NCBI GenBank assembly: GCA_964408735.1
Contig: CAYPAX010000007.1
Location: 1,450 to 65,449, forward strand
Source of the DNA: an uncultured Rhodospirillaceae bacterium
GTDB taxonomy: Bacteria > Pseudomonadota > Alphaproteobacteria > UBA7887
Length of the DNA: 64,000 bases
Direction: 5' to 3'
The position numbers and the translations under genes are program-made. A model generated the notes under the pieces. That model ran no database searches and was not told where the DNA came from. It saw nothing but the letters and a program-made list of their open reading frames with translations. Shown in pieces: positions 1 to 44,833 of the stretch (its first letter is position 1; each line of letters opens with the position of its first letter).

Positions 1-1215
1 ATCGCCGCCGCGGCGACGGTGGTCGAGGCCGACTACAGCTACCCGTACCAGAACCACGCGACGATGGAGCCGATGAATGCAACGGCGCTCTGGACCCCCG
101 AAAAGTGCGAGGTCTGGTGCCCAACCCAGAACGGCGAAGCGGCGTTCGCCGCCACCGTCGAGGCAGCGGAACTGCCAGTCGAGCGTTGCGATGTGCACAA
201 GCTCCATCTCGGCGGCGGCTTCGGCCGACGCGGCGCCTTTCATGAATATGTGCGCCAGGCCGTGCTCATCGCCAAGCAAATGCCCGGGGTTCCGGTGAAG
301 CTGCTGTGGACGCGCGAAGAAGACATGACGCACGGCCACTACCATCCCATCACCAAGGCGCGGCTTGCGGGTGGATTGGACGAGAACGGCGAACTCGTCG
401 GTTTGCGTGTGCGCCTGTCAGGGCAATCGATCCTGGCCGCCGTGAGGCCGACGCGCATGCGCGAGGACGGTGCCGACCCGATCACCTTCCAGGGCCTGTT
501 ATCCGGAGGCGACCACGGCTTCATATACAGCGTGCCCAACCTGTTGGCAGACCACGCCATGCGCAATCCCCATGTGCCGCCAGGCTTCTGGCGTGGCGTC
601 AACATCAACCAGAATGCGATCTACCTCGAGTGCTTCCTGGACGAGCTGGCGCACGCGGCGGGCAAGGATGCGCTCGCCTTTCGGCAAAAGCTCCTGGCCG
701 ACGAACCGAAAGCGCTGGCGGTGCTGAATGCGGTGGCCGAACGCGCCGGCTGGGGCACGCCGGCGCCGGCCGGGGTGCATCGCGGGCTTGCCGTGTGCAA
801 GGCGTTCGCGAGCTACATCGCGTCCTGTGCCGAGGCTTCGGTCGCCGAAGACGGAACCCTTACCGTGCACCGTATCGTCGCCGCCACCGACAGCGGCCAT
901 GTGGTCAACCCGCAGCAAGTCGAGGCGCAGGTCGAAGGCTCTTTCGTCTACGGGCTTTCCGCCTTGCTCTATGGCGCCTGCACGGTCAAGGCCGGGCGCA
1001 TCGAGCAGGAGAACTTCGACACGTACAACTCGCTGCGTATCGCAGAAATGCCGGCGGTCGAGACCATCGTCATGCCGTCGGGAGGCTTCTGGGGCGGCGT
1101 CGGCGAGCCCACCATCGCGGTGGCGGCGCCGGCGGTGCTGAACGCCATTTTCCGCGCGACCGGCAAGCGCATCCGGCATTTCCCCCTCAGGAATGCCGAT
1201 TTGAGTGCCGCGTGA
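1..1215 (+). CDS. Xanthine dehydrogenase/aldehyde oxidase family molybdopterin-binding subunit (IorB-like), 3' portion; 5' end lies outside the window
   Basis: Frame is open from nt 1. The translation carries molybdopterin-binding large-subunit motifs (GGGFGRRG, C-terminal dimerisation region). Stop at 1213-1215. Confidence 0.75.
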   Translation: MAAAATVVEADYSYPYQNHATMEPMNATALWTPEKCEVWCPTQNGEAAFAATVEAAELPVERCDVHKLHLGGGFGRRGAFHEYVRQAVLIAKQMPGVPVKLLWTREEDMTHGHYHPITKARLAGGLDENGELVGLRVRLSGQSILAAVRPTRMREDGADPITFQGLLSGGDHGFIYSVPNLLADHAMRNPHVPPGFWRGVNINQNAIYLECFLDELAHAAGKDALAFRQKLLADEPKALAVLNAVAERAGWGTPAPAGVHRGLAVCKAFASYIASCAEASVAEDGTLTVHRIVAATDSGHVVNPQQVEAQVEGSFVYGLSALLYGACTVKAGRIEQENFDTYNSLRIAEMPAVETIVMPSGGFWGGVGEPTIAVAAPAVLNAIFRATGKRIRHFPLRNADLSAA

Positions 1216-1222
1216 TGGGGTG

Positions 1223-1681
1223 ATGGCAATGCCGGCGGCTCGGTGCGCTGCGTGGTGGCTGCCGATTGCGCTGCTGATGACAAACGGCGCTGCTGCGGAG
1301 CCGGTGGTCGGCGACACCATTCCGGAGGCCTTGAGCGATAGCCCCGGCGATGCCGCCAACGGTCAAACTGTCTTCGTCGATCGCGACCGCGGTCATTGCG
1401 TGTTGTGTCATCGCGTGGCTGGACTCGACGAGCCGTTTCAGGGAGACATCGGCCCTGACCTGTCGGCCGTCGGCGAGCGCTTGAGTCCGGCGCAGATGCG
1501 CCTTCGCCTGGTCGATCCGACACGGCTCAACCCGGACACGGCCATGCCCGCCTATCACCGAACGCACGATCTCCGCCAAGTCGCCGAAGCCTATGTCGGC
1601 GTGCCCGTGCTGACGGCGCAGGAGGTCGAGGATGTGGTGGCCTATCTCGCAACCCTGCGGCGCCAGGAGACGGTGGAGTGA
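1223..1681 (+). CDS. soxX: Monohaem c-type cytochrome SoxX
   Basis: About 150 aa with an N-terminal signal peptide and a single CVLCH haem motif. It sits immediately upstream of soxYZA. The ORF opens at GTG 1205; ATG 1223 or 1229 are more likely starts. Confidence 0.7.
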   Translation: MAMPAARCAAWWLPIALLMTNGAAAEPVVGDTIPEALSDSPGDAANGQTVFVDRDRGHCVLCHRVAGLDEPFQGDIGPDLSAVGERLSPAQMRLRLVDPTRLNPDTAMPAYHRTHDLRQVAEAYVGVPVLTAQEVEDVVAYLATLRRQETVE

Positions 1682-2133
1682 CCAAAGCATCAACCAGACG
1701 GGGCTTCATGATCGGTGCAGGGGCAGCCATCGTCACGCTGCGCGCCCTGCCTGTCCAAGCGACGCCGGAGAGCATGAAGGCCGCCATCAATGCGGCCTTC
1801 GGCGATGCCGCCATCCAAGAAGGAAAAGTCACCGTTACCCTGCCGCCGATCAGCGAGAACGGGAACTCGGTCGGTCTGACGGTCGAAGTCGATTGCGCCA
1901 TGACCGAGGCGGATCATGTGCGTTCGATCCATGTGTTCTCGGAGCAGAACCCGCTGCCTGACGTGGCACGCTACCATCTCAATGCGAGGTCGGGCCGGGC
2001 ACGGCTGACGACGCGAATTCGCCTCGCCGACTCCCAAGCCATCGTCGCCGTCGCGACCATGAGCGACGGCACGCTCTGGTCGGGCTCGGCCAAGAGCATC
2101 GTTGCGCTCTCGGCCTGCGTTGATCTGATATGA
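1678..2133 (+). CDS. soxY: SoxY-family sulfur carrier protein with a non-canonical C-terminus
   Basis: Twin-arginine signal (TRRGFMIGAGAA). The core aligns with SoxY (ADHV...NPxPxV...RIRLA..Q.IVAVA.MSDG). GTGA overlap with soxX. The C-terminus is ...ALSACVDLI rather than the usual GGCGG swinging arm. Confidence 0.7.
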   Translation: MTKASTRRGFMIGAGAAIVTLRALPVQATPESMKAAINAAFGDAAIQEGKVTVTLPPISENGNSVGLTVEVDCAMTEADHVRSIHVFSEQNPLPDVARYHLNARSGRARLTTRIRLADSQAIVAVATMSDGTLWSGSAKSIVALSACVDLI

Positions 2134-2143
2134 GGCAGGAGCA

Positions 2144-2464
2144 ATGACCAAGATCCGCCTTGCCGTGCCGGAGACCGCCAAAGCGGGCGAGGTCATCGAG
2201 ATCAAGACCCTGATCGCCCATCCGATGGAAACGGGGTTTCGTCGCGACGCTGTCGGCAAGGCAATCCCGCGCGACATCATCACCGATTTCGCTTGCCTCT
2301 ATAACGGCGAAGAGGTCTTCCGCGCCGCTTTCCAGCCGGCAGTGGCGGCCAATCCGTATCTGACGTTCTTCACCACAGCGATGGACAGCGGTGAGTTGGT
2401 GTTTGTCTGGACAGATCAGCACGGCAACACCTATACCGACACCGCCTCGATCACGGTCGAATGA
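2144..2464 (+). CDS. soxZ: Thiosulfate oxidation carrier complex protein SoxZ
   Basis: 106 aa of SoxZ-like sequence with an AGGAG RBS 6 nt upstream. It follows soxY. Confidence 0.75.
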   Translation: MTKIRLAVPETAKAGEVIEIKTLIAHPMETGFRRDAVGKAIPRDIITDFACLYNGEEVFRAAFQPAVAANPYLTFFTTAMDSGELVFVWTDQHGNTYTDTASITVE

Positions 2465-3222
2465 ACGCCGTCCGCTCCGTAATTTTCGCAGCTTTCCTCT
2501 GGGCAAGCGCCGCCGCAGCGGACGAATTGCTGTCCGGCTATGCCTTTCAGTCTCCGGATACGCAGGCGCTGCAGGACGATCCCTTTGCCAACCCCGGAAT
2601 GCTTTGGGTCGACGCCGGCAGGGATCTCTGGCAATACGCCGACGGCACCGCCGAAAAGGCATGTGCCGCATGCCATGGACCGGATGGCAATGAGATGGCA
2701 GGCGTCGCAGCACGCTATCCGGCTTATGACCGACAGGAACGACATCTGGTCAATCTGGAGCAGCGGATCAACCTGTGCCGCAGCCGCCATCAGGATGCGT
2801 CCCCGCTACCCTACGAATCGGAAGACCTGCTGTCGCTGACCGCTTTCGTTGCCCATCAATCGAATAGCATGTCCATCGATGTGAGCGTCGCTGGCGAGGC
2901 GCGGCCGTTTTTCGAGGCGGGCCGGGCCTACTACACGCAGCGACGGGGGCAGCTCAATCTCGCCTGCCGCCACTGTCATGAGGACAATGCGGGCAAGATG
3001 CTGCGCGGCGATCGCCTGAGCCAAGGCCACGCAAACGGCTACCCGACATATAGGCTGGAATGGCAGACGCTCGGGTCATTGCATCGCAGGCTGCGTTTTT
3101 GCGACCGCGGCGTCCGCGCGGAGCCGCATGCCTTCGGTTCCTCCGAATATGTCAATCTCGAGCTGTTCCTGGCTTGGCGCGCGACTGGATTGAGAATCGA
3201 ATCCCCGGCTGTCCGCCGCTAG
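2461..3222 (+). CDS. soxA: Dihaem cytochrome c SoxA
   Basis: 253 aa with a signal peptide and two haem motifs, CAACH and CRHCH. ATGA overlap with soxZ. Confidence 0.75.
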   Translation: MNAVRSVIFAAFLWASAAAADELLSGYAFQSPDTQALQDDPFANPGMLWVDAGRDLWQYADGTAEKACAACHGPDGNEMAGVAARYPAYDRQERHLVNLEQRINLCRSRHQDASPLPYESEDLLSLTAFVAHQSNSMSIDVSVAGEARPFFEAGRAYYTQRRGQLNLACRHCHEDNAGKMLRGDRLSQGHANGYPTYRLEWQTLGSLHRRLRFCDRGVRAEPHAFGSSEYVNLELFLAWRATGLRIESPAVRR

Positions 3223-6402: not shown

Positions 6403-6981
6403 ATGGTGGATTCTGACAAGAGCACGGATAAGGCTGGATCGGGCTATCACATAGAGCAGGGGCGGATCGGGGACCTGGTCGGCGAGGTCATGACCCTGTT
6501 CGCCTCGATGCAGTCGTTTCGCCGGGGATTGGCGTCGATTCGCCATCCCAAGCAGGAAGAAGACCGCTTCGATACCATCGCCGACCAGCTCGACGCCATC
6601 ATCGCCGCCACTGAGGAAGCCACCAATGTCATCATGGATGCGGTCGAGCGCATCTCGGACATGATCATCGAGCGCCGTAGCGAGCTTGACGGTGCGGGCT
6701 TGAGCGAGTGGGCCGACGGCATCGACACCGAGTTCCAGAAGGTCTTCGAGGCCTGCTCGTTCCAGGACATCACCGGCCAGCGCATCGGCAAGGTGGTGGA
6801 AGAGCTCAAGTTCATGAACGACAAGCTCGCCTCCATGGTCGAGATCTGGGGTCCGGAGGCGCTGTCTGCGGAGCCTCTGGCAGACAAAAAGAAAGACGTG
6901 CCCGAGGGCGAGGTCCTGGAGGGCCCGGCCCTCGAAGGCAAGGGCGTCAGCCAGGGCGATATCGACAAGCTGTTCGACTGA
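6403..6981 (+). CDS. cheZ: CheZ-like protein phosphatase (orphan)
   Basis: The motif FQDITGQR matches the catalytic D..Q region of CheZ. The acidic helical architecture and the ~190 aa size are typical of alphaproteobacterial CheZ homologues. Confidence 0.55.
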   Translation: MVDSDKSTDKAGSGYHIEQGRIGDLVGEVMTLFASMQSFRRGLASIRHPKQEEDRFDTIADQLDAIIAATEEATNVIMDAVERISDMIIERRSELDGAGLSEWADGIDTEFQKVFEACSFQDITGQRIGKVVEELKFMNDKLASMVEIWGPEALSAEPLADKKKDVPEGEVLEGPALEGKGVSQGDIDKLFD

Positions 6982-6993
6982 CGGCGCACACAG

Positions 6994-7159
6994 ACGGTGA
7001 CAGTTACCTATTATTTCGGTATTTATCGTTTATTTTCAAAATATTGCGGAGACTTTGGCCTGAGCCTGTTGTGGCAAGGATCGACCGAGCTCGATCGAAA
7101 GACTCGTAACACATTGATATCAACCGAAAAGATTCTGAGTAATAGGTAACTGTCACCGT
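6994..7159. mobile_element. MITE-like element: perfect 20-bp terminal inverted repeats (ACGGTGACAGTTACCTATTA) around a 126-bp AT-rich core
   Basis: IR-L 6994-7013 and IR-R 7140-7159 are exact reverse complements. The core is about 40% GC in a roughly 68% GC background. The element lies between two convergent gene ends. Confidence 0.5.
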
Positions 7160-7162
7160 TTG

Positions 7163-8335
7163 TTAGGCGGTTTCGTCGAACAGTTCGCGGCCGATCAGCA
7201 TGCGCCGGATCTCGCTGGTGCCGGCGCCGATCTCGTAGAGCTTGGCGTCGCGCAGCAGCCGCCCGGTCGGGCTTTCGCTGATATAGCCGGTGCCACCCAG
7301 GGCCTGGATCGCCTCCAGCGCCATCCAGGTCGCCTTTTCCGCCGCATAGAGGATGACGCCAGCGGAATCCTTGCGCGTGGTCTCGCCGCGGTCGCAGGCC
7401 TTGGCGACAGAATAGGCGTAGGCCTTGCAGGCGTTCATGGTGGTGTACATGTCGGCGAGCTTGCCCTGCATGAGCTGGAAAGTGCCGATGGGCCGGCCGA
7501 ACTGCTCGCGCTGGTGCACATAGGGCACGACGATATCCATGCAGGCCTGCATGATGCCGAGCGGCCCGCCGGCCAGCACCGTGCGCTCGTGGTCGAGGCC
7601 GCTCATCAGCACCGCGACGCCGCCGCCGACCTCGCCGAGCACGTTCTCTTCCGGCACTTCGCAGTCCTCGAACACCAGCTCGCAGGTGTTGGAGCCGCGC
7701 ATGCCGAGCTTGTCGAGCTTCTGGGCGGTGGAAAACCCGGCGAAATCCTTCTCGATGAGGAACGCCGTGATGCCGCGGCTGCCGGCCTCCGGGTCGGTCT
7801 TGGCATAGACCACGAGGGTATCGGCGTTGGGCCCGTTGGTGATCCACATCTTGTTGCCGTTGAGGATGTAGCGCTCGCCACGTTTCTCGGCGCGCAGCTT
7901 CATGCCGACGACATCGGACCCGGCGCCGGGCTCGCTCATGGCCAGGGCGCCGACATGCTCGCCCGAGATCAGCTTCGGCAGGTAGCGCGCCTTTTGTTCG
8001 GGCGTGGCGTTGCGGTTGATCTGGTTGACGCAGAGATTGGCGTGGGCGCCGTAGGACAGCCCGACCGAGGCCGAGCCGCGGCTGATCTCCTCGATCGCCA
8101 CCACCTGCTCGATATAGCCCATGCCGGCGCCGCCATAGGCCTCGTCGGCGGTGATGCCGAGCAGTCCGAGATCGCCGAGCTTGCGCCAGAGGTCGCCGGG
8201 GAAATCGTTGCTCTCGTCGATGGCCTCGGCCCGCGGCGCGATCTCGTCGGCGGTGAAATTGGTCACCGACTCCCGCAACATGTCCACGGTCTCGCCGAGA
8301 TCGAAGTCGAGGGTCGGGTAGCGGTTGGGAATCAT
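7163..8335 (-). CDS. ivd: Isovaleryl-CoA dehydrogenase (acyl-CoA dehydrogenase family)
   Basis: 390 aa from [15 protein letters not shown], with strong ACAD motifs and an IVD-like sequence. The ORF's N-terminal extension is treated as spurious. Confidence 0.8.
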
Positions 8336-10302: not shown

Positions 10303-10965
10303 ATGACCAAGATCTTCGGGCCGCAACAGCGCGCCATGCAGGACAAGTTCGACACCCGCCGCGTTGCCGATTTCATCGCCGGCGGCTTTATCGTCGACGA
10401 GATCAGCGAGGCCGACCAGGCCTTCATCGAGAGCCGCGACATGTTCTGGATGGCGACGATCGGCGAGGACGGCGCGCCGACGGTCTCCTATAAGGGCGGC
10501 GACGCCGGATTCCTCAAAGTGCTCGACAACAAGACCATCGCCTTCCCGAGCTATGACGGCAACGGCATGTTCTATTCGATGGGCAATATCGCCACCAGCG
10601 CCAAGATCGGCATGCTGTTCATCGACTTCGAGAATCCCATTCGCCTGCGCGTCCAGGGCACGGCGACGGTGTCCGACAACGACCCCCTGCTGAGCGAGTT
10701 CAAGGAAGCGCAGATGGTGGTGCGGGTCACGGTCGACGGCATGTGGCCCAACTGCCCGCGCTATGTCCATCGCATGCAGAAAGTCACGCCGTCGCGCTAT
10801 GTGCCGCGCGAGGGTGCGGATACGCCGCTGGCCGGCTGGAAGCGCATCGACATCGCGCAGGAAGTCTTGCCCGCCGCCGACCAGGGCCGGGCCGAGGCCG
10901 AAGGCGGCCAAATCACCGTCGAGGATTGGTTCGGCAAGGTCGCGACCGGCGACCCCGAAGCCTGA
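10303..10965 (+). CDS. Pyridoxamine 5'-phosphate oxidase-family FMN-binding protein
   Basis: Split-barrel PNPOx-like pattern (FWMATIGEDGAPTVSYKGG). Confidence 0.6.
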   Translation: MTKIFGPQQRAMQDKFDTRRVADFIAGGFIVDEISEADQAFIESRDMFWMATIGEDGAPTVSYKGGDAGFLKVLDNKTIAFPSYDGNGMFYSMGNIATSAKIGMLFIDFENPIRLRVQGTATVSDNDPLLSEFKEAQMVVRVTVDGMWPNCPRYVHRMQKVTPSRYVPREGADTPLAGWKRIDIAQEVLPAADQGRAEAEGGQITVEDWFGKVATGDPEA

Positions 10966-10972
10966 CCGAGGT

Positions 10973-11005
10973 CCTGCCGTCCCCGCGTCTTGCGGGGACG
11001 GCAGG
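10973..11005 (+). terminator. GC-rich hairpin with a 14-bp stem (CCTGCCGTCCCCGC/GCGGGGACGGCAGG) between the PNPOx-like gene and panE
   Basis: Perfect inverted repeat with a 5-nt loop and no U-tract. It may act as a terminator or a stability element. Confidence 0.35.
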
Positions 11006-11018
11006 TCAAGGAGCTCAA

Positions 11019-11945
11019 ATGAAGATCGCAGTGGTAGGCGCCGGCGCCATGGGCTCGGTCTATGCGGCCCTGTTGGCCAAGGCCGGCAACGAGGTCTGGG
11101 CAGTCGACGTCTGGCAGGAGCATATCGAGGCGATTCGCGAGGGCGGCCTGCACATCGAAGGCGCCAGCGGCGACAACACGGTGGCGGTCAATGCCACCAC
11201 CGAGGCGGCCGAGGTCGGCACCTGCGATCTGGTGATCCTGGCCACCAAGGCGCGCCATGTCGCGAACGCCGCCGAGAGCATCAGGGCCATGCTGGCGCCG
11301 GAGGCCTCGGTGCTGACCATCCAGAACGGGCTAGGCAGTGGCGATGCGGCCGCCGCGGCGCTTGGGCCCGAGCGCGTGAGCATCGGTGTCGCCGGCGGCT
11401 TCGGCGCCAAGATGCTCGGCCCCGGCCATGCCCGCCACGAAGGCATGGAGCTGATCCGGCTCGGCGAGATGGAAGGCCCCGTGACGCCGCGCCTCGCAGC
11501 CATTGCCGCCGTTTGGAGCGAGGCCGGCTTCAAGGTCAAATGCTTCGACGACATCCACCAGCTGATCTGGGAGAAGCTGATCTGCAACGGCACTTTCAGC
11601 GCCGTCTGCACGCTGAGCGGCCTGACCGCGGGCGGCGTGCTCGACGACCCTGACGCCTGGGCCGTGGCCTCGGCCTGCGCGACGGAGGGCGCGGCGGTGG
11701 CACGGGCCAAGGGAATCACCCTCGATTTCGACGATCCGGTGGCCTACGTGCACGCTTTCGGAGCCAAGATCCGCGGCGGCAGACCGTCCATGTGGCAGGA
11801 CATGGATGCCGGGCGTCCGGGCGAGATCGACGCCATCAACGGCGCCATCGCCGCCGCCGGCAAGGCCGCGGGCGTGGCCACCCCGACCCACGATACGCTG
11901 ACCGCGCTGGTGCGCGCCGCCGAGGTTGCCCGCGGCATTCGGTAA
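11019..11945 (+). CDS. panE: 2-Dehydropantoate 2-reductase
   Basis: N-terminal Rossmann motif VVGAGAMGS and the ApbA/PanE fold. AAGGAG RBS 6 nt upstream of the ATG. Confidence 0.8.
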   Translation: MKIAVVGAGAMGSVYAALLAKAGNEVWAVDVWQEHIEAIREGGLHIEGASGDNTVAVNATTEAAEVGTCDLVILATKARHVANAAESIRAMLAPEASVLTIQNGLGSGDAAAAALGPERVSIGVAGGFGAKMLGPGHARHEGMELIRLGEMEGPVTPRLAAIAAVWSEAGFKVKCFDDIHQLIWEKLICNGTFSAVCTLSGLTAGGVLDDPDAWAVASACATEGAAVARAKGITLDFDDPVAYVHAFGAKIRGGRPSMWQDMDAGRPGEIDAINGAIAAAGKAAGVATPTHDTLTALVRAAEVARGIR

Positions 11946-22593: not shown

Positions 22594-23217
22594 CTATTCC
22601 GCAGCCTGTGCCGCTTGCGGCGACAAGGGCAGGCCGACCCCGATCATGCTGTCTCGGGTGACGAGCTTGGCGAGATCCTCCTCGCTCCAGCCCTCGGTGC
22701 CGTCGGGGCGCTTCGGCAGCACCATGTAACGCATGTCGGCGGTGGAATCGTGCACCCGCAGCTCGATGTCGTCGGCCATGCTGACGCCGAACTCAGCCAG
22801 CACCGTGCGTGGCTCGCGCACCACGCGCTTGCGGTATTCCTGCGCCTTGTACCAGTCCGGCGGCAGGCCGAGGACGGTGCGCGGATAACAGGAGCAGAGC
22901 GTGCAGACGAAAAGATTGTGCACATCGTCGGTGTTCTCGACCACCACCAGCAGGGTGCCGTCGAGAGTGAGGCCGAGTTCCTCCGCCGCGGCGCTGCCGT
23001 CAGCGAGCATGCGGGCGCGATAGGCCTCGTCGGTCCAGGCGCGGGCGACCATGCGGGCGCCGTCGGCCGGGCTGCGGGCGTCCATGCGTTCCATCTGGCG
23101 GGCGATGCGATCGTCGGTCAGCACGCCATGCTCGACCAGCAATTCGCGCACCGCGACCGCGAGGTGGCGGTAATAGGGGTCGTGCACACCGTGGCGGTGG
23201 TTGACTTCGTCGCTCAT
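22594..23217 (-). CDS. Nitrile hydratase-family alpha subunit, cobalt type
   Basis: The metal-binding motif VCTLCSCYP is followed by a region that aligns with NHase alpha (VVREPR, WSEE-L-LVTRDSMIGV). 207 aa from MSDEVNH. ATGA overlap with the upstream gene. Confidence 0.8.
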   Translation of the reverse strand: MSDEVNHRHGVHDPYYRHLAVAVRELLVEHGVLTDDRIARQMERMDARSPADGARMVARAWTDEAYRARMLADGSAAAEELGLTLDGTLLVVVENTDDVHNLFVCTLCSCYPRTVLGLPPDWYKAQEYRKRVVREPRTVLAEFGVSMADDIELRVHDSTADMRYMVLPKRPDGTEGWSEEDLAKLVTRDSMIGVGLPLSPQAAQAAE

Positions 23218-23513
23218 GACGCCTGCTCCAGCCAATGTTCGTAGATCTCGACCTCGACGCAGTCCTGGGCCGGGCCGGTATAGTCGGGCCACAGATGGGA
23301 TTGCGGAAAACGCACCCGGTAGAGGGTCTGCTTGGGCAGGCCTTCCTCGCCATAGGCGAGCGCTTCGGGATTGCGAAAGGTGCCGCAGATGCGTTCGATC
23401 TCGCCGCTCTTGCCGCGCACATACCAGGGCGTGCGCAAATGGGGTTTGCGCGGCTCGCTGGGCGGATCGCGGAAGGCGACATGCACCTTATCGCCGACAG
23501 CGAAGCGGCTCAT
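23214..23513 (-). CDS. Nitrile hydratase beta subunit, C-terminal half, as a separate polypeptide (ToyL/ScnA-like)
   Basis: 99 aa. FxVGDKVxV...PRYVRGKxG...LYxVRF matches the C-terminal SH3-like domain of NHase beta. ATGA overlaps at both ends. Confidence 0.7.
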   Translation of the reverse strand: MSRFAVGDKVHVAFRDPPSEPRKPHLRTPWYVRGKSGEIERICGTFRNPEALAYGEEGLPKQTLYRVRFPQSHLWPDYTGPAQDCVEVEIYEHWLEQAS

Positions 23514-23818
23514 GCCTCTCCCTCCCGCGCCGCCACCTCGGCCACCCGCGCCTGTACCTCGGTCTCGTCGAGCACGCCCTTCTCGATCAGAATGGCGGCG
23601 ATGGAAGCAATCCAGCGCTCGTAATAGCTCAAGGACGAGTAGGCATCCGGCGCCAACGCCTCGATGCCGCGGCGCAGCTCGTCGACGCGCATGATCTTCT
23701 CTTCCTGGATCAGCAACGACATCAGCGCATCGATACGCTTCTCCCAGACGTCGTAGTCGTGCTCGCCAAGCTCCACCGGCCCCGCTGGCTGGCCGCCCAT
23801 ATCATGATGACTGCGCAT
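23510..23818 (-). CDS. Nitrile hydratase beta subunit, N-terminal half, as a separate polypeptide (ToyK/ScnB-like)
   Basis: 103 aa from MRSHHDMGG, which matches the HDLGG start of NHase beta. Other matches are WEKRIDAL and YYERWI. GGGAGG RBS. Confidence 0.7.
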   Translation of the reverse strand: MRSHHDMGGQPAGPVELGEHDYDVWEKRIDALMSLLIQEEKIMRVDELRRGIEALAPDAYSSLSYYERWIASIAAILIEKGVLDETEVQARVAEVAAREGEA

Positions 23819-24064
23819 GTTCGTCCTCCCACGGGGCGCATTGTGGGCCGGGCCGCGGGGGCTTGGCAAGGGTCGGCCGCCACGTTCCTGTTCCGAGCTC
23901 AGCCACCGTATCCCGTGTCTCCAACTGCCAAGGTCACGCAGAGGAGAGGAATGGTCGAGACTGACAGTCGCCGATGTCGGCTGGCTTGCCTCGTCGGATT
24001 GCCCAGCGCAGCCCCTCCGCGCACTCCGCGGCTCCGCGTGCCCCTTCTTCTTTATCGTAGACTT

Positions 24065-24949
24065 TCAGCCCAGCCTTGCCACGAAGTCCGCCACCGCTTC
24101 GCCTATCTGGTCGGGGGAGTCTTCCTGGATGAAGTGGAGGCCGGGGACGGTGACCTCGGTCTGGTTGGGCCAGGCGCGGCAGAACTCGCGCTGCTCGCCG
24201 ACCAGAATGCTGCCGGGATCGGCGTTGATGAAGAGCTTGGGCAGGTCGCTTGACGCCAGCCATTGCGAATAGCCCTCGGCGATGGCGACCACGTCCGCCG
24301 GCTCGCCGTCGATGGGGATCTGGCGCGGCCAGGTCAGGGTCGGGCGGCGGGATTCGCCGGGCTCCGTGAAGCGCTTGCGGTAATGCGCCATCTCGGCGTC
24401 GCTCAAGCCCCGGGCCACGGCGCGGGGCAATAGCACCTCGACGAAAAGGTTCTTGGTCAGCACCATGTCGTCCCCCGCCGGCGAGCGCAGGGCCTGGAAG
24501 AACTCGCGCGCGCCGTCGGGCCAGTCGGCCCACGACACGGGTCGTACCAGCGCTTCCATATAGGCGATGCCGGCAACCCGGTCCTGGTTGCGGTGGGCCC
24601 AGTGGAAGCCGAGGGCGGAGCCCCAGTCGTGCACCACGAAGACCGCGTCGCGCAGATCCATGGCCGCGAGCCAGGCGTCGAGATAGCGGGCGTGGGTGGC
24701 GAAGGTGTAGTCGCCATCCGACGAGACGCCGGAGTCCCCCATGCCGATGAGGTCCGGTGCCAGGCAACGATTGCCCTCGGCCAAATGCGGGATGATATTG
24801 CGCCAGAGATAAGACGAGGTCGGGTTGCCGTGCAGGAACACCACGGGACGGCCATCGGCCTTGCCGGTGTCCACATAGGCGATCTCGGAATCGAGCACGG
24901 CGGCGCGCCGGCGCGGGTGGGGGTCGGCGGCGGATGGCGTGGCTGTCAT
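24065..24949 (-). CDS. Haloalkane dehalogenase-family alpha/beta hydrolase
   Basis: FLHGNPTSSYLWRNIIPHL and HDWGSALG are hallmarks of DhaA-type haloalkane dehalogenases. 294 aa from MTATPSAAD. Confidence 0.75.
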   Translation of the reverse strand: MTATPSAADPHPRRRAAVLDSEIAYVDTGKADGRPVVFLHGNPTSSYLWRNIIPHLAEGNRCLAPDLIGMGDSGVSSDGDYTFATHARYLDAWLAAMDLRDAVFVVHDWGSALGFHWAHRNQDRVAGIAYMEALVRPVSWADWPDGAREFFQALRSPAGDDMVLTKNLFVEVLLPRAVARGLSDAEMAHYRKRFTEPGESRRPTLTWPRQIPIDGEPADVVAIAEGYSQWLASSDLPKLFINADPGSILVGEQREFCRAWPNQTEVTVPGLHFIQEDSPDQIGEAVADFVARLG

Positions 24950-25050
24950 GGCGTCCCTCCTGTTCGGGCGCATTTGGGCGTGCGCTGCCGATTGAGTCAA
25001 GCCGCGCACCCGCGTATCTTGGCCGCCGCACGAAATACAGGGAGGCCGGC

Positions 25051-25827
25051 ATGGCACGGTTGGACGGCAAGGTCGCGTTGATTACGGGCGGGGCATCGGG
25101 CATCGGCAGGCGCTCGGCGGAGCGCATGGTGGGGGAAGGTGCGCGCGTGGTGATCACCGACATCCAGGCCGAAGTGGGCCACGCGGCGGCCGAGGAGATC
25201 GGCGGCGACACGCTGTTTCTCGAACACGACGTCACCCACGAGGCCGGCTGGCAGGCGGTTGTCGAGGTCGCGCTGACCCGCCACGGCCGCCTCGACGTGC
25301 TGGTCAACAGTGCCGGCATTGCCGAGATGGGCAATGTCGAGGAGACCGCGTTCGAGGACTGGAAGCGCACCCAGGCGGTCAATTCCGACGGCGTGTTCCT
25401 GGGCTGCAAATACGGCGTGGCGGCGATCAAGCAGACCTCGCGCGAGGAAGGCGCCGGCGGTTCGATCATCAACATCTCTTCCGTCTCAGGCCTTATCGGC
25501 GGCCACAACCTCGCCGCCTACAATGCCTCCAAGGGCGCGGTGCGACTGCTGACCAAGTCCGTCGCCCTCTATTGCGCCCGCCAGGGCTACAACATCCGCT
25601 GCAACTCGGTGCATCCCACCTTCATCGACACGCCCATGGTCAAGGCCATGTACGAAGGCGCCGCCGATCCCGCCAAGACCAAGGCCAAGCTGGAGCGCCA
25701 GATCCCCCTCGGCCATATGGGCGAGCCCGACGACATCGCCTGGGGGATTGTCTATCTGGCGTCGGAGGAATCGAAGTTCATGACCGGCACCGAGTTCGTG
25801 CTCGATGGCGGCATTACGGCCATGTAG
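25051..25827 (+). CDS. SDR-family oxidoreductase
   Basis: TGGASGIG and the N..S...YNASK catalytic tetrad. 258 aa. Confidence 0.8.
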   Translation: MARLDGKVALITGGASGIGRRSAERMVGEGARVVITDIQAEVGHAAAEEIGGDTLFLEHDVTHEAGWQAVVEVALTRHGRLDVLVNSAGIAEMGNVEETAFEDWKRTQAVNSDGVFLGCKYGVAAIKQTSREEGAGGSIINISSVSGLIGGHNLAAYNASKGAVRLLTKSVALYCARQGYNIRCNSVHPTFIDTPMVKAMYEGAADPAKTKAKLERQIPLGHMGEPDDIAWGIVYLASEESKFMTGTEFVLDGGITAM

Positions 25828-27451: not shown

Positions 27452-30439
27452 ATGAGGAAACTGCTCGACGAGCTTGACTTTCACTATGGCGAATCGGCAC
27501 TGACCGCTATGGCGTCCCGTTTGGCGGCCGCGCAAGAGCATAGGTTCCAAGCGGGCGACTCCAGGACGCAGGAGGTGACCCGAACGACCGCGCTCGTCGT
27601 GCTTGCCGAGATGGACGACAGGGTGGCCGAGGCCTTGGCCGCGGGGAAACTCTCTCTTGAGGCATTCCGCGAGGAGGTGGCGCTGAGCGGGGCGATCGCG
27701 TCGGTTTCGGCGACGGATGTCGACCTGCATGCGAATTTTGGCACTGCCATCAGGGGCTACGCCGCACGGTATCCGGACAAGCGTGACCTCACGCCGCACG
27801 CGCTAGCGCTCGCCATTGCCGAGATGGCCGAGGCGGACGCAGGCGGCTTGATCCCCGACCGGCTGCGCGAGGCAGGCGCGGACATCTCCGCGATCGTGAT
27901 GGCCCTGCGCGCGATTCATGTTGCCCCGACGACCCTGGATGTTCCGCGCCCGACGGTCTGGCTGCTGCACTACGATGTCACCGATCAACTGGTCGGCTTG
28001 ATCTTGGGCAACGATCTTGAAACTACGGTTGCTTGGATAAGCAAGAAAATCGTCGACGGGATCGAGCCTAGCGATCCGGTGATATATTGGCGCAACACGA
28101 GCGCTGACGAGAAGCGTAGCGGCGGCCTCGTGGGAACGGGCCGGTTCGTGAGCGGGCGGCACAGCGAAGCCGAGGAACCTCCGGATCCCGGCGAGGGCAG
28201 GTCTGCCCGGAAGGCCTATGCGACCGAGATCATCGAGCGGTTTCCGGATGACGTAATACCCGAGGATGACATTATCACCGAGACAGGGCTCGATATGCCC
28301 TGGCGCCTTGGCTCGATACTCGAAGTGCCGAACGACGTGGCCCTGAAGATCGACGACATGTTGACCTCACGGGGTCACGTCAGCCTGTTTCCCCGGCTGG
28401 CGACGGAGATCACGTTCGTCGATGATTCGCCGAAGGCCGACGAGGACTATCTGCAGCGCGCCGAGCATGCCTTCGTGTTGGCTGCGCGGCTCAATCGCAT
28501 CTGGGAGGAGGCCTGCGGCATTGGCGAGCCGCCGCCGCAGGAGCCGGGCACGGTAGCAAGCGCGAGCTGGACCGGCATCGGCGCGGAAGAGGCCACGCCG
28601 GCCGCGGAAAACAGCTTCGTGGTTCACATAGACGCGCCGTGGGGAGGCGGCAAGACGACCTTCGCCAACTACCTGACCCGCATACTCAATCCATTTCGCC
28701 ATGGCACCGGCGAGCCCAGTTGGCTCGGTCGGCTACACCTTGATGACGCTGAGGCCTGGCCGCGTGAGTTCCGCAAGCCCTGGTGCGTGGTCGAGTTCAA
28801 CGCCTGGGAGCACGAGCATATCGACCCGCCCTGGTGGGTGTTCTATCAGGCCGTCAGGCGGCAATGCTTCGAAGCGGTCAGGACCGAGCACTTCCGCAAC
28901 ACCGCCTTCGACTGGTCCGCGGAGAACGGCTGGCGCACGGCCGTGGTGCGTCATCTCGACTGGCTGGCATTGTGGCTCAGGGAACTCGGCTGGCGGATAT
29001 TCACGCCACGTGTTGGCCTTCTCGGCATGACCTTCGCCCTGACCGTGGTGCTGGCGATCATTCTCGCCCAGCATGACCTGTTCGACCCGGACAGCGTGCT
29101 GTCGGGAGAAGAGGCCGACATAGTCGCGGCAACGCCCGCGCCTGGGTTGGAAACACAAGGCGCAGGCGATACCGCAGATGCGGCGGTGGACGGTGCGGGA
29201 AAGCCGGTCGCCGATGAAGCGGGCAACGGGCAGTCGGAAGGCACGCTGTCGCAGATAATCGTCACCTCGGTGCTCGTGCTGCTCGGCGGCGCCACCGGGA
29301 TATGGTCGGTCGTGGCCGCCTTCACGCAGTCGCTGCTGCCCGGAACACCGAGCTCGGCGCGCAACTACTCGCTAGGCTCGGGCGATCCGCTCGACCGCTT
29401 TCGCATCCACTTCGATCGCATGATGCGACAGCTCGGGCGCCCGATCGTCGTCATTGTCGATGACATCGACCGCTGCAATCCGCAGTTCGTCGTGGAATTG
29501 TTGCGTGGCATGCAAATCATCCTCAAGAGCCCGCGCGTGGTATATCTGCTGCTCGGCGACAGGAACTGGATCGAGCAAAGCTTTTCCGAGGTGCACAAGG
29601 CCATGAAGGATCTGAGCGTTGGTCCCGAACACAGCCTGGGCGGCCGTTTCGTTGAAAAGTCGATCCAGCTGTCCTTGATACTGCCCGGCATATCGTTCGA
29701 AGATAAGTCGGAATATGTGCGGCGAATTCTCAACGTCGATGGCAATGGCGCTGCCGCGCCGGCCGGGACCGAGTCGGCGAATCGGCTGGCCGATATCCAT
29801 GAGGATCTGGAGGCCATCTCCGCGGTCAAGGATCCGGTGCGGCGCGACGCCGGCGCGAGCACGCTGCGCCGCTCGATAGAGAGCGATGCGGCGCTCGACG
29901 ACGATCAGAGGAAGGCCGCCCAAAGGGAGATCGACGTTACGCTTGCCATGCGCTCCGCCGTCGACGAATCCCTGCAGCAGGCGACGCAGCACCGCCTGGT
30001 ACCCATCGCCGGTGTGCTACCGGCGAACCCGCGGCAGATCAAGCGTATCATCAACGCCGTCGCCTTCCTGCAGGAGATCGCCCGCATCGCCGAAGGCATA
30101 CAGCCCGGCAGCAAGGAATGGTGCAACATGGCGCTTTGGGTGGTTGTGATGACCGAATGGCCGCGCAGCTGGGCAAAAATGTCGCATTATCCCCGGCTTA
30201 TCGATCGCCTGCGCAACCCGAGCCTCCAAGACACCGACGGCTTGCCGGAACAAAAGCTCATGGCAAGCTGGCTCAAGACGATCAGGGAGGATGTCGGCCT
30301 GGTAGCGCTGCTCGACTTCAGCTCGAAGAACCCGCAATGGACCGAAGCGCGGCTCGAGGCCGATGACATACGGCGCTTCCGCAATTTCATGCCGCCGCCG
30401 CCGGAGATCGACGAAACGCCACCGCCCGAGCAGAAGTAA
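27452..30439 (+). CDS. KAP-family P-loop NTPase with a ~390-aa uncharacterised N-terminal extension and TM helices inserted into the NTPase domain
   Basis: Walker A APWGGGKT is followed by the FNAW motif. Hydrophobic helices (VGLLGMTFALTVVLAIILA, IIVTSVLVLLGGATGIWSVVAAF) sit between Walker A and Walker B (IVVIVDDIDRC). The KAP signature NPRQIKRIINAVAF is present. 995 aa. Confidence 0.8.
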   Translation: MRKLLDELDFHYGESALTAMASRLAAAQEHRFQAGDSRTQEVTRTTALVVLAEMDDRVAEALAAGKLSLEAFREEVALSGAIASVSATDVDLHANFGTAIRGYAARYPDKRDLTPHALALAIAEMAEADAGGLIPDRLREAGADISAIVMALRAIHVAPTTLDVPRPTVWLLHYDVTDQLVGLILGNDLETTVAWISKKIVDGIEPSDPVIYWRNTSADEKRSGGLVGTGRFVSGRHSEAEEPPDPGEGRSARKAYATEIIERFPDDVIPEDDIITETGLDMPWRLGSILEVPNDVALKIDDMLTSRGHVSLFPRLATEITFVDDSPKADEDYLQRAEHAFVLAARLNRIWEEACGIGEPPPQEPGTVASASWTGIGAEEATPAAENSFVVHIDAPWGGGKTTFANYLTRILNPFRHGTGEPSWLGRLHLDDAEAWPREFRKPWCVVEFNAWEHEHIDPPWWVFYQAVRRQCFEAVRTEHFRNTAFDWSAENGWRTAVVRHLDWLALWLRELGWRIFTPRVGLLGMTFALTVVLAIILAQHDLFDPDSVLSGEEADIVAATPAPGLETQGAGDTADAAVDGAGKPVADEAGNGQSEGTLSQIIVTSVLVLLGGATGIWSVVAAFTQSLLPGTPSSARNYSLGSGDPLDRFRIHFDRMMRQLGRPIVVIVDDIDRCNPQFVVELLRGMQIILKSPRVVYLLLGDRNWIEQSFSEVHKAMKDLSVGPEHSLGGRFVEKSIQLSLILPGISFEDKSEYVRRILNVDGNGAAAPAGTESANRLADIHEDLEAISAVKDPVRRDAGASTLRRSIESDAALDDDQRKAAQREIDVTLAMRSAVDESLQQATQHRLVPIAGVLPANPRQIKRIINAVAFLQEIARIAEGIQPGSKEWCNMALWVVVMTEWPRSWAKMSHYPRLIDRLRNPSLQDTDGLPEQKLMASWLKTIREDVGLVALLDFSSKNPQWTEARLEADDIRRFRNFMPPPPEIDETPPPEQK

Positions 30440-32628: not shown

Positions 32629-35600
32629 CTATTGCGCGAACGCCTCCGGCCCCGGATCGGGCGGGATATCCCAGCCACACGCCGTGAGGCCGGACGTGAG
32701 GGCATCGATCATCGGGCGGGTGCCCGCTTTCTGCCAGAAATATACCTCCTGCCAATAGGCATCACGGAATCCTGGATATGCCGACAGCGCCGTATCCAGG
32801 GCAATCTTTCCGCGTTCCAGATCATCGCTGGCGCAGTGGGCCGCGGCCAGAAACACGTGGGTCAGGAAGTACCAGTTCATCTGGTTCGCCTCCAACCGGG
32901 AGATCGCCGCACCAAATTCGCCGCGTGCCATGTGAACCTTGGCCATGTTCCAGTTCATCCAGCCCGGGTATTTCGGGTTCAGGATCGTGAGCCTGTCCAT
33001 GATCTCGACGGTTCGCTCATAGGCCCCGACGTTGGAAAACACTTCCGCCGCCCAGCCGATGATATCCGAGTTGTTCGGCTCCAGGCGCAAGGCCTCCTCG
33101 GCCTCGCGAATGGCGCGTTGCGGGTCGTCTGTCAGGTAGAGGGCTTGGGCGTATATGACGTGACCAATGCCGCTGTTCGGATCTAGGAAGACGGCTCTTT
33201 CAAGTGTCGAAAGCGCTCTGTCGAGGGAGGAGTCCGGCAGGGGGTTGAGCCCGACGGCGATCTCCAGGAGGTAGAGATTGCCGAGATAGGCCAGCGCCTC
33301 AGCATAATCCGGTTCGCTCTCTATGACGCCTTCCAGACAATCCCGTGCCACACTATGCGTTTCCGGCCCGACCTGGCGGACGAACTCATGAGCGCGCAGA
33401 ATGCAGTCGTAGGAAGAAAAATATTTCGGTGCCTGCCTATCGCCTCGCGCGGACTGGGCGAGGGAGATCGCGCCGTGCACGTCGCCGATTCGGCCCGCCA
33501 CGGTTTCCGTAATCTCGTCCTGAATCGAGAATATGTTCGCCGCATCGAGTGCGCGGTCAAAGGTCTCGGCCCATAGGTGCGTGCCCTCTTCAGCCGCCAG
33601 CAGCTGCGCCGTCACCCGCACCGTGTCGCCGCTGCGGCGGATGCTGCCCTCGACCACGTAGTCGGCGCCGAGCTTCTCGGAGATGGCCGGGATATCCACG
33701 GCTTCTCCCTTGAACTGGAACGTGGTATTGCGGCCCAGCACGAGGATGTCCGGATACTGCGCCAGCCGCGTAATAATGTCCTCGGTGATGCCGTCGGCGA
33801 AGTATTCCTGGCTAGGGTCCCCCGAAAGATTGTCGAAGGGGAGGACAGCAATGACGGGCCGTCGAGCCTCGGCATCAGGCGAATGTTCGGGCACGCCGAG
33901 GTCGCGTAACGTCGCCAGATAGCCTGCAACGATCGCTCGGTCCTTATAGGCCCAAATGCGCTCCGTGTCGTTTCGCACTACCTCGATGGACAAGGCAGGA
34001 TCCTTGTTGCGGAGACGCGCAATGGCAGCCATGGCGTCGGCCTCGCGACTAGCTCTGGCGAGTGCGATGGGCAGGATATACTGGACTTCGGGATCGTCAG
34101 GCACGAGCGAGCTGTAACGCTCCAGCCAATGTGCGCCCTCGACGGGGTGTCCCGAGTTGAGAAGGATTGTCCCCTTGTCCAGGAGATACCAATGGGGATG
34201 CACCGGGCTGAGGCGAATGGCCTCATCAAGCTCTGTCATGGCGAGCTCGTAGCTGCCCGACGTATACAGCATCAGGGCATAGTGCGCGTGTGCGAGCGAG
34301 CCGCCGGGATCAAGCTCGACGCCCCGGCGCGCGGCGGCGATCGCAGCCTCGTGCTCATGCAAGTCGCGGTGAATCATTACCTGCAGGCCGTAAGCGGCGG
34401 CCAGGGTATCGTCCGCCGCGAGCGCCTTTTCGACATGCGCTTTGGCCTGCAACAGGCCGTCCGCATGATCTTCCCAGCGGTAGCGGTAAGTATATTCCAA
34501 CGCCCATCCCAGATACGCCCAACCCAAGGCAAATCCGGGGTCGTCGGCTACGGCGGAGGCGAATAACGACTGTGCACGCGCATTGTCAGCCTGGTTGGCC
34601 TTTCGCAGCAGCGCGACACCTTGCTGCCATTTTTCCCAAGCTTCGATGTTGTTCGTGCCACCACGCCAGCGCAGCGCTTGTGGCCCTTCGGTAAGCTCGA
34701 CTTGCAGCGCACTCACCACTTCCAGGGTAATATCGTCCTGCAGCGCGAATATGTCGTCGAGCGGGCGGTCGTAGCGCTCGGCCCAGACATGGCCGCCGCT
34801 CGCCACCTCGATCAGTTGCATGACAATGCGAATCTGATCTCCGGCAACCTGCACGCTGCCCTCCAGCACATGTTCGACACCGAGCTGGCGGGCGACCTCG
34901 CTCATGTCCGCTTCCGCGTCTCGGTACTGCAGCGTCGAATAGCGCGCCGGCACGAACAGCCGCCGGGCCTGCGACAGACTGGCTATGATGTTTTCGTGCA
35001 GACCGTCGGCGAGAAAAGCGTATTCGTCGGAACCGCTCAAGTCGGCGAACGGCAGCACCGCCACGGACGCCGTGTCGGGATCGACAAGCACCGGGTCGCC
35101 GGAGGGCGTGGCCATCTCCGATGGCTCCGGAATGCCGACCAGCCACCAGATCGTCGCGCCGGCAATGATGACGGCCGTGAGTGCAGCCGCGATGCCAATG
35201 ACAGGGCGGCGCTTGCGGCGTAGGGGTGCCGGCTCGGACGCCTCCGCCGTCACCCGATAGGCCGGTACCGGCCGCGGGATATTCTTCACCTCGTGCTCGC
35301 CAATGAAGGCGAAGCCGAGTGCCAGCCGATCACGCACTTCTTCATAGACCTTGCCGGAGACATTGGCCGTGCCCGGCTCGGCCAGCCCCTCCAGCCGCGC
35401 CGCGACATTCACGCCATCGCCATAGATCGTCCCGTCCTCTTCCTCGATAACGTCGCCCTGGTTGACGCCGATGCGGAACAGCATGCGCCGCGCCTCGGCC
35501 ACCGGCGCGTTGATTTCCGCCAGCTTCTCCTGCACTTCCACGGCGCATTGCACGGCCTCGACGACGCTGCGGAACTCGGCCAGCACGCTGTCTCCGGCGG

Positions 35601-38085: not shown

Positions 38086-38314
38086 TTTCAGGTGCCGGCG
38101 GCGGCGATATCGGGGGCCGCAGGAAGCGCCATGGTCCGATGGTGAGCGGGTGACATATCGGCCACGGGAGTCAAGGGCCTGCGGTCCGCTTCGCGGATGG
38201 CCTACGGGGCCACCCTTGACTCCCCTGGCCGATATGCAAAATGGCAACCATCGGACCATGGCGCGGGCCGCGCATTGGGTGGCAGCGTCGCGGAAGTCGC
38301 GCCCCAACGAACGC

Positions 38315-38360
38315 CCCCGGCGCCCGGGCGAATTTCGCCGTTCGGCGGGCCGCCGGGGTC
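38315..38360 (+). promoter_or_regulatory. GC-rich hairpin repeat, copy 2, ending 19 nt upstream of the cobA start; a candidate 5'-UTR regulatory structure
   Basis: Same sequence family as 37717-37765. Its position suggests an RBS-proximal regulatory hairpin. Confidence 0.35.
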
Positions 38361-38378
38361 TGCTATAAGACGCCGGTG

Positions 38379-40622: not shown

Positions 40623-40639
40623 CGTCGATAGTCCTTTCG

Positions 40640-41320: not shown

Positions 41321-41324
41321 GCGC

Positions 41325-41513: not shown

Positions 41514-41587
41514 CGTCTTCTCCCTGCGCTCAAGTTTTCGGTGCCGACCATAGAGCGCGACGGCAGAGATGGGAAGGGCAAACAGGG

Positions 41588-43130: not shown

Positions 43131-43132
43131 TC

Positions 43133-44807: not shown

Positions 44808-44833
44808 GGCGTCAGCTTAGCACCTTCGCCCGC

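Follow-up and report, generated by a model that had tools for sequence, protein, structure and literature searches.

A SoxY paralogue with an AACIE-type arm is encoded in a conserved operon with a xanthine-oxidase-family molybdoenzyme

Results

A sox gene block at the end of a six-gene operon

The genes analyzed here lie at the beginning of a 64,000-nucleotide stretch of contig CAYPAX010000007.1 (positions 1,450 to 65,449 of the forward strand; hereafter, the window), from assembly GCA_964408735.1 of an uncultured Rhodospirillaceae bacterium. Four sox genes, soxX, soxY', soxZ and soxA, where soxY' denotes a SoxY paralogue with a variant C-terminus, follow the truncated gene of a molybdenum (Mo)-binding subunit (Table 1). 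They form the 3' portion of an operon of six genes, in the order 2Fe-2S subunit, Mo subunit, soxX, soxY', soxZ and soxA.

Table 1. Genes at the analyzed locus, in window coordinates
Feature	Coordinates	Strand	Matching models and remarks
Mo-binding subunit gene, C-terminal 404 codons	1..1215	+	Pfam MoCoBD_1, MoCoBD_2; cut by window start
soxX, monoheme cytochrome c (CVLCH), Sec signal	1205..1681	+	TIGR04485, 1h31_B
soxY', SoxY paralogue exported via Tat, 'AACIE arm' family	1678..2133	+	TIGR04487
soxZ, SoxY' partner, without a signal peptide of its own	2144..2464	+	TIGR04490, 2ox5_Z
soxA, type I diheme SoxA (CAACH, CRHCH)	2461..3222	+	TIGR04484, 1h31_A

The open reading frames (ORFs) match the first-pass annotation of this DNA, which was made from the sequence alone and described four tightly coupled sox genes with these heme motifs. 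The soxX stop codon overlaps the soxY' start codon in a GTGA, the soxZ stop codon overlaps the soxA start codon in an ATGA, and soxZ begins 10 nt downstream of soxY'. The Mo-subunit gene ends a few bases before soxX, for which Table 1 gives the longest ORF; metagenome gene callers begin soxX at ATG 1229, yielding a 150-aa product, and the true start is probably ATG 1223 or ATG 1229.

SoxX, SoxZ and SoxA all exceed the cutoffs of the canonical equivalog models. SoxX scores 80.4 bits against TIGR04485 (cutoff 61) and matches 1h31_B with an E-value of 4e-20, SoxZ scores 96.9 bits against TIGR04490 (cutoff 76) and matches 2ox5_Z (E 7e-26), and SoxA scores 239.8 bits against TIGR04484 (cutoff 110) and aligns over its full length with 1h31_A (E 3.8e-57). 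Besides passing their respective models, the two SoxXA components keep their heme motifs and the conserved SoxA cysteine, which lies within LHRRLRFCDRGVRAEP and aligns with the conserved cysteine of the 1h31_A SoxA. These features extend to the related clusters, in which 80 of 82 SoxA proteins carry two CxxCH motifs together with an R-R-x-R-x-C motif, and all SoxX orthologues present a single C[LIVM][LI]CH motif.

Comparison with two related genomes indicates purifying selection on every gene of the six-gene variant, with ratios of nonsynonymous to synonymous substitution rates (dN/dS) of 0.06-0.24. The GC content of soxY'ZA (61-62%) dips mildly with respect to that of the whole window (66%). 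With no mobile genes flanking the locus, so mild a dip is uninformative as to a horizontally acquired island. No internal promoters or terminators were found in the locus above chance expectation, and no Rfam families were detected across the window. Through twin-arginine translocation (Tat) or Sec signals, or through co-export, all proteins of the module are predicted to be periplasmic, SoxZ and the 2Fe-2S subunit presumably included.

SoxB and SoxCD are absent from the window and SoxB from all related loci

Queries for the canonical soxXYZABCDEFGH cluster were taken from a Paracoccus plasmid record. In tblastn searches against the window (E ≤ 1e-3), matches were limited to SoxX, SoxY, SoxZ and SoxA, and no match was obtained for SoxB, SoxC, SoxD, SoxE, SoxF, SoxG or SoxH, in agreement with the earlier statement that the window lacks soxB and soxCD. 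The 20 largest remaining ORFs include no other sox genes, their Pfam domains being unrelated, and the GGCGG-stop terminus of canonical SoxY does not occur in any frame of the window. SoxB is absent from all of the ~170 related loci (tblastn with Paracoccus SoxB), no relative has SoxG or SoxH beside it, and SoxC-like and SoxD-like matches are sporadic, appearing in few of these loci and without synteny.

SoxY' is a member of the AACIE arm family

SoxY' is a 151-aa protein with a Tat motif (TRRGF) at residues 6-10 and the C-terminus V142-A-L-S-A-C147-V-D-L-I151, preceded by an isoleucine (...IVALSACVDLI). The corresponding DNA reads GTT GCG CTC TCG GCC TGC GTT GAT CTG ATA TGA, with the cysteine codon at 2116-2118. 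The protein matches the Pfam SoxY domain (E 3e-28) and is 33% identical to Paracoccus SoxY. In alignments with solved SoxY structures, among them 4uwq_B, and with Paracoccus SoxY, Cys147 falls on the carrier cysteine; this residue is hence present, as originally proposed, but it is displaced from the end by two residues rather than the three initially counted, since four residues follow Cys147 and two follow the cysteine of GGCGG. In the AlphaFold2 model, a confident beta core extends to residue 143, and residues 144-151 are unstructured (predicted local distance difference test scores of 50-68), so that the tail is predicted to retain the flexibility of a swinging arm. The acidic side chain at position +2 from the cysteine would take the place that the C-terminal carboxylate has in GGCGG.

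Exactly the same 151-aa protein occurs on 24 contigs, which come from several independent metagenome samples. Together with dN/dS values well below 1, these contigs exclude a sequencing or frame artifact as well as a decaying gene as the origin of the variant terminus, and uphold the earlier contention that it does not derive from a shifted frame.

Profile searches assign SoxY' to a curated family that already bears a name. The protein scores 177.1 bits against TIGR04487, 'SoxY-related AACIE arm protein' (cutoff 172, E 1.7e-52, residues 7-149 of 151), and 91.4 bits against the true SoxY model, TIGR04488, which is below the cutoff of 125. The TIGR04487 score is marginal, a typical member (locus L038) reaching 218.3 bits. 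Across 303 distinct sequences, the arm presents alanine at positions -1 (99%) and -2 (92%) from the cysteine, T, V, L or I at +1 (98%) and E or D at +2 (93%), with three to six residues following the cysteine, which yields the consensus A-A-C-[TVLI]-[ED] plus one to four extra residues. The arm of the window protein, S-A-C-V-D-L-I, fits this consensus at -1, +1 and +2. Its serine at -2 is shared by only 4 of the 303 sequences, and it belongs to a divergent subclade with tails of the form ...AC-V-[DN]-L-I. Among 42 diverse family members, the A-C of the arm is invariant and all carry the RR signal. The terminus, first described as a singular replacement of GGCGG, is therefore a rare serine variant of a common A-A-C arm, and SoxY' is a member of a large family and not a local oddity. 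It shares with TIGR04487 proteins the Tat signal, the SoxY fold, the x-A-C-hydrophobic-acidic arm and an adjacent soxZ, and differs in its serine at -2, its ...VDLI tail and its near-cutoff score, as well as in an operon devoid of the cytochrome c and sulfide dehydrogenase pair described below.

The family is abundant. A homologue search with the window SoxY' returned 551 clusters, and a search with a Bradyrhizobium member returned at least 7861 clusters at 90% identity, one of which holds 1082 sequences. Of the 150 best representatives at 50% identity, ~100 carry the arm, and 521 loci were found (contigs, one genome per species). RefSeq applies the name 'SoxY-related AACIE arm protein' to orthologues from Bradyrhizobium, Neorhizobium and Methylobacterium. 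One entry (P0144), which was submitted under the name 'SoxY-related AACIE arm protein [Leptospira interrogans]', shares a 90%-identity cluster with Bradyrhizobium proteins and looks like Bradyrhizobium contamination of the assembly.

Other SoxY arms were encountered in these searches. The SoxY of a Mo-linked module on a Roseomonas marmotae plasmid (L090, 11875-12315) ends in ...VVLGACVETG; its Gly-Ala-Cys is intermediate between GGC and AAC, and its RefSeq label is that of a true SoxY. A third arm type, with the tails ...VATNGCL or ...VATNGCA, occurs in four-gene modules (soxY, soxZ, a cytochrome c and an FccB-like flavoprotein) that lack SoxXA, SoxB and the Mo enzyme, located on Sinorhizobium meliloti pSymA (L089, 11854-14295) and on a Phyllobacterium zundukense plasmid (L091, 12004-14438). 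Despite their arm, these proteins are annotated in RefSeq as 'thiosulfate oxidation carrier protein SoxY'. Like the window SoxY', the NGC-arm and quinoprotein-relay SoxYZ carriers have a non-GGCGG arm and are tied to a periplasmic dehydrogenase other than SoxB/SoxCD, but they either have a ...NGC[LA] tail or are fusions of SoxY with SoxZ, and they are found without SoxXA and the Mo enzyme. Against the fused SoxY-SoxZ model TIGR04557 (cutoff 140), SoxY' and SoxZ of the window score 59.9 and 50.6 bits, and they are encoded by separate genes.

A xanthine-oxidase-family molybdoenzyme is the conserved operon partner of SoxY'

The N-terminal part of the Mo subunit and the 2Fe-2S gene are located just upstream on contigs of the same species (L001-L006). 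On L002, the full Mo subunit comprises 725 aa with a Tat signal and is preceded by a 137-aa 2Fe-2S subunit (Fer2_2). Its closest solved relative is the large subunit of an aldehyde dehydrogenase (8gy3_C, E 1.3e-77, full length), in which the sequence GLGEP aligns with a GVGEP motif that is invariant in 68 orthologues of the Mo subunit. In these orthologues, 212 positions are at least 97% invariant, and one cysteine (378 in L008 numbering) is invariant in the Mo-subunit clade and missing from 8gy3_C. The Mo subunit reached no NCBIfam equivalog, and no flavin adenine dinucleotide (FAD) or triheme cytochrome subunit accompanies it. Domain content and homology thus identify the gene product as the Mo-binding subunit of a putative xanthine-oxidase-family enzyme of the IorB or membrane aldehyde dehydrogenase type. 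It shares with IorAB and the membrane-bound aldehyde dehydrogenases (8gy3; PaoABC, 5g5g) a Tat-exported Mo subunit, a separate 2Fe-2S subunit and the lack of an FAD subunit, and differs from them in the lack of a triheme cytochrome c, in its association with sox genes and in the extra invariant cysteine.

The 66 related genome loci that extend far enough upstream were used to assess conservation of the operon. The Mo subunit is encoded within 5.2 kb upstream of the sox genes in 63 of these loci and slightly further away in two more, in which a duplicated flavoprotein gene or an insertion intervenes, leaving L016 as the only one of the 66 without it. The first-pass annotation had noted that the sox genes follow directly on a molybdopterin oxidoreductase gene; that adjacency is real, but the gene is a conserved operon partner and not a mere neighbor. 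The flavoprotein of a flavocytochrome c sulfide dehydrogenase, which matches 5n1t_A with an E-value of 5e-148, is likewise present in 63 of the 66 loci. The usual gene order is 2Fe-2S subunit, Mo subunit, a monoheme cytochrome c of ~100 aa (CSGCH), flavoprotein, soxX, soxY', soxZ and soxA. The cytochrome c and flavoprotein pair is missing from the window lineage and from L007, L008, L010 and L082, which keep the other six genes. The window operon is thus a shortened version of a module that is widespread, periplasmic and self-contained and that comprises eight genes in most relatives. Since the lineages without the pair maintain six genes under purifying selection, the invariant core consists of the Mo enzyme, SoxXA and SoxY'Z.

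The same module order, with unrelated flanks, is present on contigs of Gammaproteobacteria (Competibacterales), Burkholderiaceae, Methylomirabilota and Rokubacteria, and PGAP/RefSeq annotation names all eight genes in plasmid records from Methylobacterium and Roseomonas. Neorhizobium galegae, Methylobacterium, Microvirga and Bradyrhizobium are among its culturable hosts. On the Roseomonas plasmid (L090), the cytochrome c and flavoprotein pair is found after soxA and not before soxX. No other gene is conserved in the neighborhoods of the module. As a reciprocal test, we examined 80 metagenome loci picked by Mo-subunit similarity alone (63-74% identity), 35 of which extend at least 3 kb downstream. 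Sox genes lie downstream of the Mo subunit in 28 of these 35 loci (~80%), in one case behind tandem copies of the Mo enzyme. Linkage is asymmetric: SoxY' is almost never found without the Mo enzyme, and the Mo enzyme is sometimes found without adjacent sox genes.

Several loci depart from the common arrangement. Two or three tandem pairs of 2Fe-2S and Mo-subunit genes precede the sox genes in L015 (1-7866) and L146 (1-7698), and of these copies the one beside the sox genes diverges most (~52% versus 68% identity to the protein of the window lineage). The flavoprotein gene occurs in two tandem copies in L034 (6667-9336). In L016, 1.3 kb without any ORF of at least 90 aa (6455-7782) occupy the position of the Mo enzyme ahead of cytochrome c, flavoprotein and soxXY'ZA, possibly as the remnant of a decayed Mo-subunit gene. 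Five independent assemblies from different samples (L001-L004 and L006) all break within ~60 bp upstream of the 2Fe-2S gene (position ~35-60), which suggests a repeat or a strain-variable junction directly upstream of the operon. In the closest metagenome-assembled genome (L007), soxA matches over its first half and then continues in an Arg-rich frame (10844-11224), probably through a frameshift or an assembly error, and the Mo-subunit gene call of L005 (167-2254), which has a foreign FAD-binding N-terminus, is probably a chimeric assembly.

Discussion

The results presented above place the variant SoxY of the window in the AACIE arm family and couple this family to a molybdoenzyme. The family is already catalogued, and the novelty lies in its conserved coupling to a xanthine-oxidase-family enzyme. 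In the searchable literature, no description of the family's function was found, and no paper on the module, the AACIE family, its arm or a connection of sox genes with enzymes of the IorAB type. The earlier suggestion that the SoxAX/YZ module serves something other than complete thiosulfate oxidation agrees with a SoxY' that falls below the true SoxY model, passes the AACIE arm model and is never encoded beside soxB. That interpretation had nevertheless missed both the large named family and the conserved Mo-enzyme partner.

The module shares with the canonical Sox systems of Paracoccus pantotrophus and Rhodovulum sulfidophilum a periplasmic location, a type I diheme SoxA, a monoheme SoxX, a SoxZ and a carrier of the SoxY fold with its cysteine at the equivalent position of a flexible C-terminal tail. 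It differs from them in that the canonical systems have a GGCGG arm together with SoxB and SoxCD, whereas this locus lacks SoxB, SoxCD, SoxG and SoxH and has a xanthine-oxidase-family Mo enzyme as its conserved partner. In the canonical pathway, the enzyme that acts on the SoxY persulfide, SoxCD, is likewise a molybdoenzyme. By functional analogy, both SoxCD and the enzyme described here would be periplasmic molybdoenzymes, genetically tied to a SoxYZ carrier and delivering electrons to c-type cytochromes. They differ in cofactor family and fold, since SoxCD belongs to the sulfite oxidase family and the enzyme at this locus combines MoCoBD domains and the GVGEP motif with a 2Fe-2S subunit, and has no Oxidored_molyb domain.

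We tentatively favor, with somewhat less than even confidence, a periplasmic sulfur module that is sufficient in itself, with SoxXA loading Cys147 of SoxY' and the Mo enzyme acting as the dedicated partner of the carrier. SoxXA, with its Cys-ligated active-site heme intact, would oxidatively join sulfide or thiosulfate to Cys147 of SoxY'Z, and the FccAB-type sulfide dehydrogenase, where present, might load the same residue. The loaded arm would then be passed to the xanthine-oxidase-family enzyme instead of SoxB and SoxCD, and the bulkier arm may constitute an adaptation to a different active-site funnel. As to the chemistry, our preferred, if doubtful, reading is that the Mo enzyme oxidizes the carrier-bound sulfane sulfur as a non-orthologous replacement of SoxCD. 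Electrons would exit via the 2Fe-2S clusters to the hemes of SoxXA or of the cytochrome c. The oxidized sulfur could be released without SoxB, for instance as sulfite displaced by the next sulfide; thiosulfonates give off sulfite upon attack by a thiol or by sulfide.

Several observations weigh against a dedicated carrier and Mo enzyme pair of this kind. We know of no xanthine-oxidase-family enzyme that oxidizes sulfur, among solved structures the Mo subunit comes closest to an aldehyde dehydrogenase, the module encodes no release enzyme, and the hand-off from the carrier to the Mo enzyme is deduced from gene context. In the window lineage, which lacks the sulfide dehydrogenase pair, sulfide loading would depend on SoxXA alone. 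Given that SoxX, SoxZ and SoxA pass the canonical equivalog cutoffs, a SoxB encoded elsewhere may be able to serve them. Moreover, in the reciprocal test, 7 of the 35 loci hold stand-alone two-gene pairs without sox genes within 6 kb. The Mo subunits of these pairs show 65-71% identity, one of them being 92% identical to a sox-linked orthologue, and on a distance tree some of them group in a small separate clade, with others nested among the linked ones. The existence of these pairs implies that the Mo enzyme can probably work on a free substrate.

Such interleaving of linked and unlinked Mo enzymes also bears on the possibility of a sulfur relay, with the SoxY'Z persulfide, formed by SoxXA or FccAB, installing or restoring the Mo=S ligand of an enzyme that oxidizes a soluble aldehyde or N-heterocycle. 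Xanthine-oxidase-family enzymes require a terminal Mo=S ligand, which can be lost in the periplasm, for example to cyanide. A role in cofactor maintenance would account for the asymmetry of the linkage, with the Mo enzyme found alongside SoxY' at 65 of 66 loci and ~20% of the close Mo-subunit homologues standing alone, and it fits the absence of a conserved XdhC-type maturation gene or product-release enzyme in the module, the resemblance of the Mo subunit to an ordinary hydroxylase of the aldehyde dehydrogenase type (GVGEP aligned with GLGEP) and a precedent at the level of annotation, the 'quinoprotein relay system', in which a rhodanese and a SoxH-like hydrolase accompany a SoxYZ-like carrier beside periplasmic pyrroloquinoline quinone dehydrogenases. 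Six proteins, including two sulfur-oxidizing enzymes, would however be a costly provision for cofactor upkeep. Sulfuration of the molybdenum cofactor is a cytoplasmic step that precedes Tat export, and we know of no experimental precedent for resulfuration in the periplasm. We consider this explanation unlikely.

The remaining explanations dispense with any transfer between carrier and Mo enzyme. The two activities could be parallel, co-regulated periplasmic reactions for detoxification or energy, the Mo enzyme oxidizing an aldehyde and SoxXA, SoxY'Z and FccAB handling sulfide, as when formaldehyde and H2S arise together from methanethiol oxidation. The aldehyde dehydrogenase relationship of the Mo subunit, the match of FccAB to a genuine sulfide dehydrogenase (5n1t_A), the occurrence of stand-alone IorAB pairs and the presence of the module in heterotrophs, for instance Neorhizobium, Methylobacterium and Roseomonas, are all consistent with such an arrangement. 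Yet the neighborhoods conserve neither a methanethiol oxidase nor another upstream enzyme, the remodeled arm and the association of SoxY' with the Mo enzyme across phyla (65 of 66 loci) are left unexplained, and sulfide taken up by SoxY'Z would go no further if SoxB is missing. We regard this account as quite improbable. The sox genes might also be a redundant or condition-specific second SoxXA/YZ set that uses a canonical SoxB, and possibly SoxCD, from elsewhere, with the Mo genes as passengers. The canonical scores of SoxX, SoxZ and SoxA, the close relationship of SoxA to the Rhodovulum type I SoxA and the excess of soxA, soxX, soxY and soxZ in a 2026 survey (~1000-1300 extra copies, compared to only 65 extra copies of soxB, outside sox clusters in cluster-bearing genomes) would be in line with that proposal, as would the second soxY that Bradyrhizobium diazoefficiens is reported to carry beside its essential one. 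Against it, linkage to the Mo genes is cross-phylum and reciprocal, which is not passenger behavior, and SoxY' falls below the true SoxY model, with both glycine pairs around the cysteine replaced. In B. diazoefficiens, soxY1 is reportedly the one soxY that thiosulfate oxidation requires, and soxY2, whatever its type, is no substitute. Among the matches listed, many AACIE arm proteins are from Bradyrhizobium and none is labeled as B. diazoefficiens. A spare SoxXA/YZ set appears highly improbable.

These results bear on how sox genes are interpreted. Sulfur-cycle surveys and annotation take soxX, soxY, soxZ and soxA as evidence of thiosulfate oxidation, but many such genes, amounting to thousands of clusters and especially in soil Bradyrhizobium, belong to a different module, and sox genes from AACIE modules should not count as canonical Sox capacity. 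The surplus of soxA, soxX, soxY and soxZ over soxB in the 2026 survey is the pattern expected from this module. A 2024 phylogeny of SoxY discarded sequences without 'GGC' and, through this filter, excluded the AACIE arm family. Should the carrier indeed serve the Mo enzyme, be it by holding a substrate or by donating sulfur, the chemistry would be new for a well-studied enzyme family. Under the preferred reading, in which SoxXA loads the carrier and the Mo enzyme oxidizes its sulfur, the IorAB-type enzyme could be the first xanthine-oxidase-family molybdoenzyme to act on protein-bound sulfur. It would belong, with SoxXA and SoxY'Z, to a sulfur-oxidation pathway independent of SoxB and SoxCD that would be widespread in soil Bradyrhizobium, other heterotrophic Proteobacteria, Methylomirabilota and Rokubacteria, and that would be the source of a large share of the ~1000 'orphan' soxXYZA sets; we regard this broader proposition as speculative and rather doubtful.

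Other features of the window

Elsewhere in the window, three small ORFs of the nitrile hydratase type occupy positions 22594-23869 on the reverse strand, with the beta subunit split into proteins of 119 and 99 aa, followed by an alpha subunit of 232 aa, an architecture shared with the thiocyanate hydrolase genes scnBAC. A thiocyanate hydrolase was considered and rejected, since the alpha-like subunit scores 208 against a cutoff of 291 on the thiocyanate hydrolase gamma model and exceeds the cutoff of the nitrile hydratase model (260 versus 249.9). As a nitrile hydratase, this locus is unconnected to sulfur metabolism. It is flanked by a glutathione S-transferase-like gene, an amidohydrolase gene and a haloalkane dehalogenase gene (NF002938, 425 bits; 24065-25057).

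Further downstream, positions 27452-30439 encode a 995-aa KAP-family P-loop nucleoside triphosphatase. Two tandem paralogous genes on the reverse strand (32629-37589) encode proteins of 1052 and 600 aa with closely similar N-termini, the larger of which presents a Pfam adenylate/guanylate cyclase domain followed by tetratricopeptide repeats. Upstream of the next gene group (38241-46422), no cobalamin riboswitch or other Rfam family was detected even at E ≤ 1; the group itself comprises cobalamin biosynthesis genes, including a tetrapyrrole methylase and others recognized by eye.

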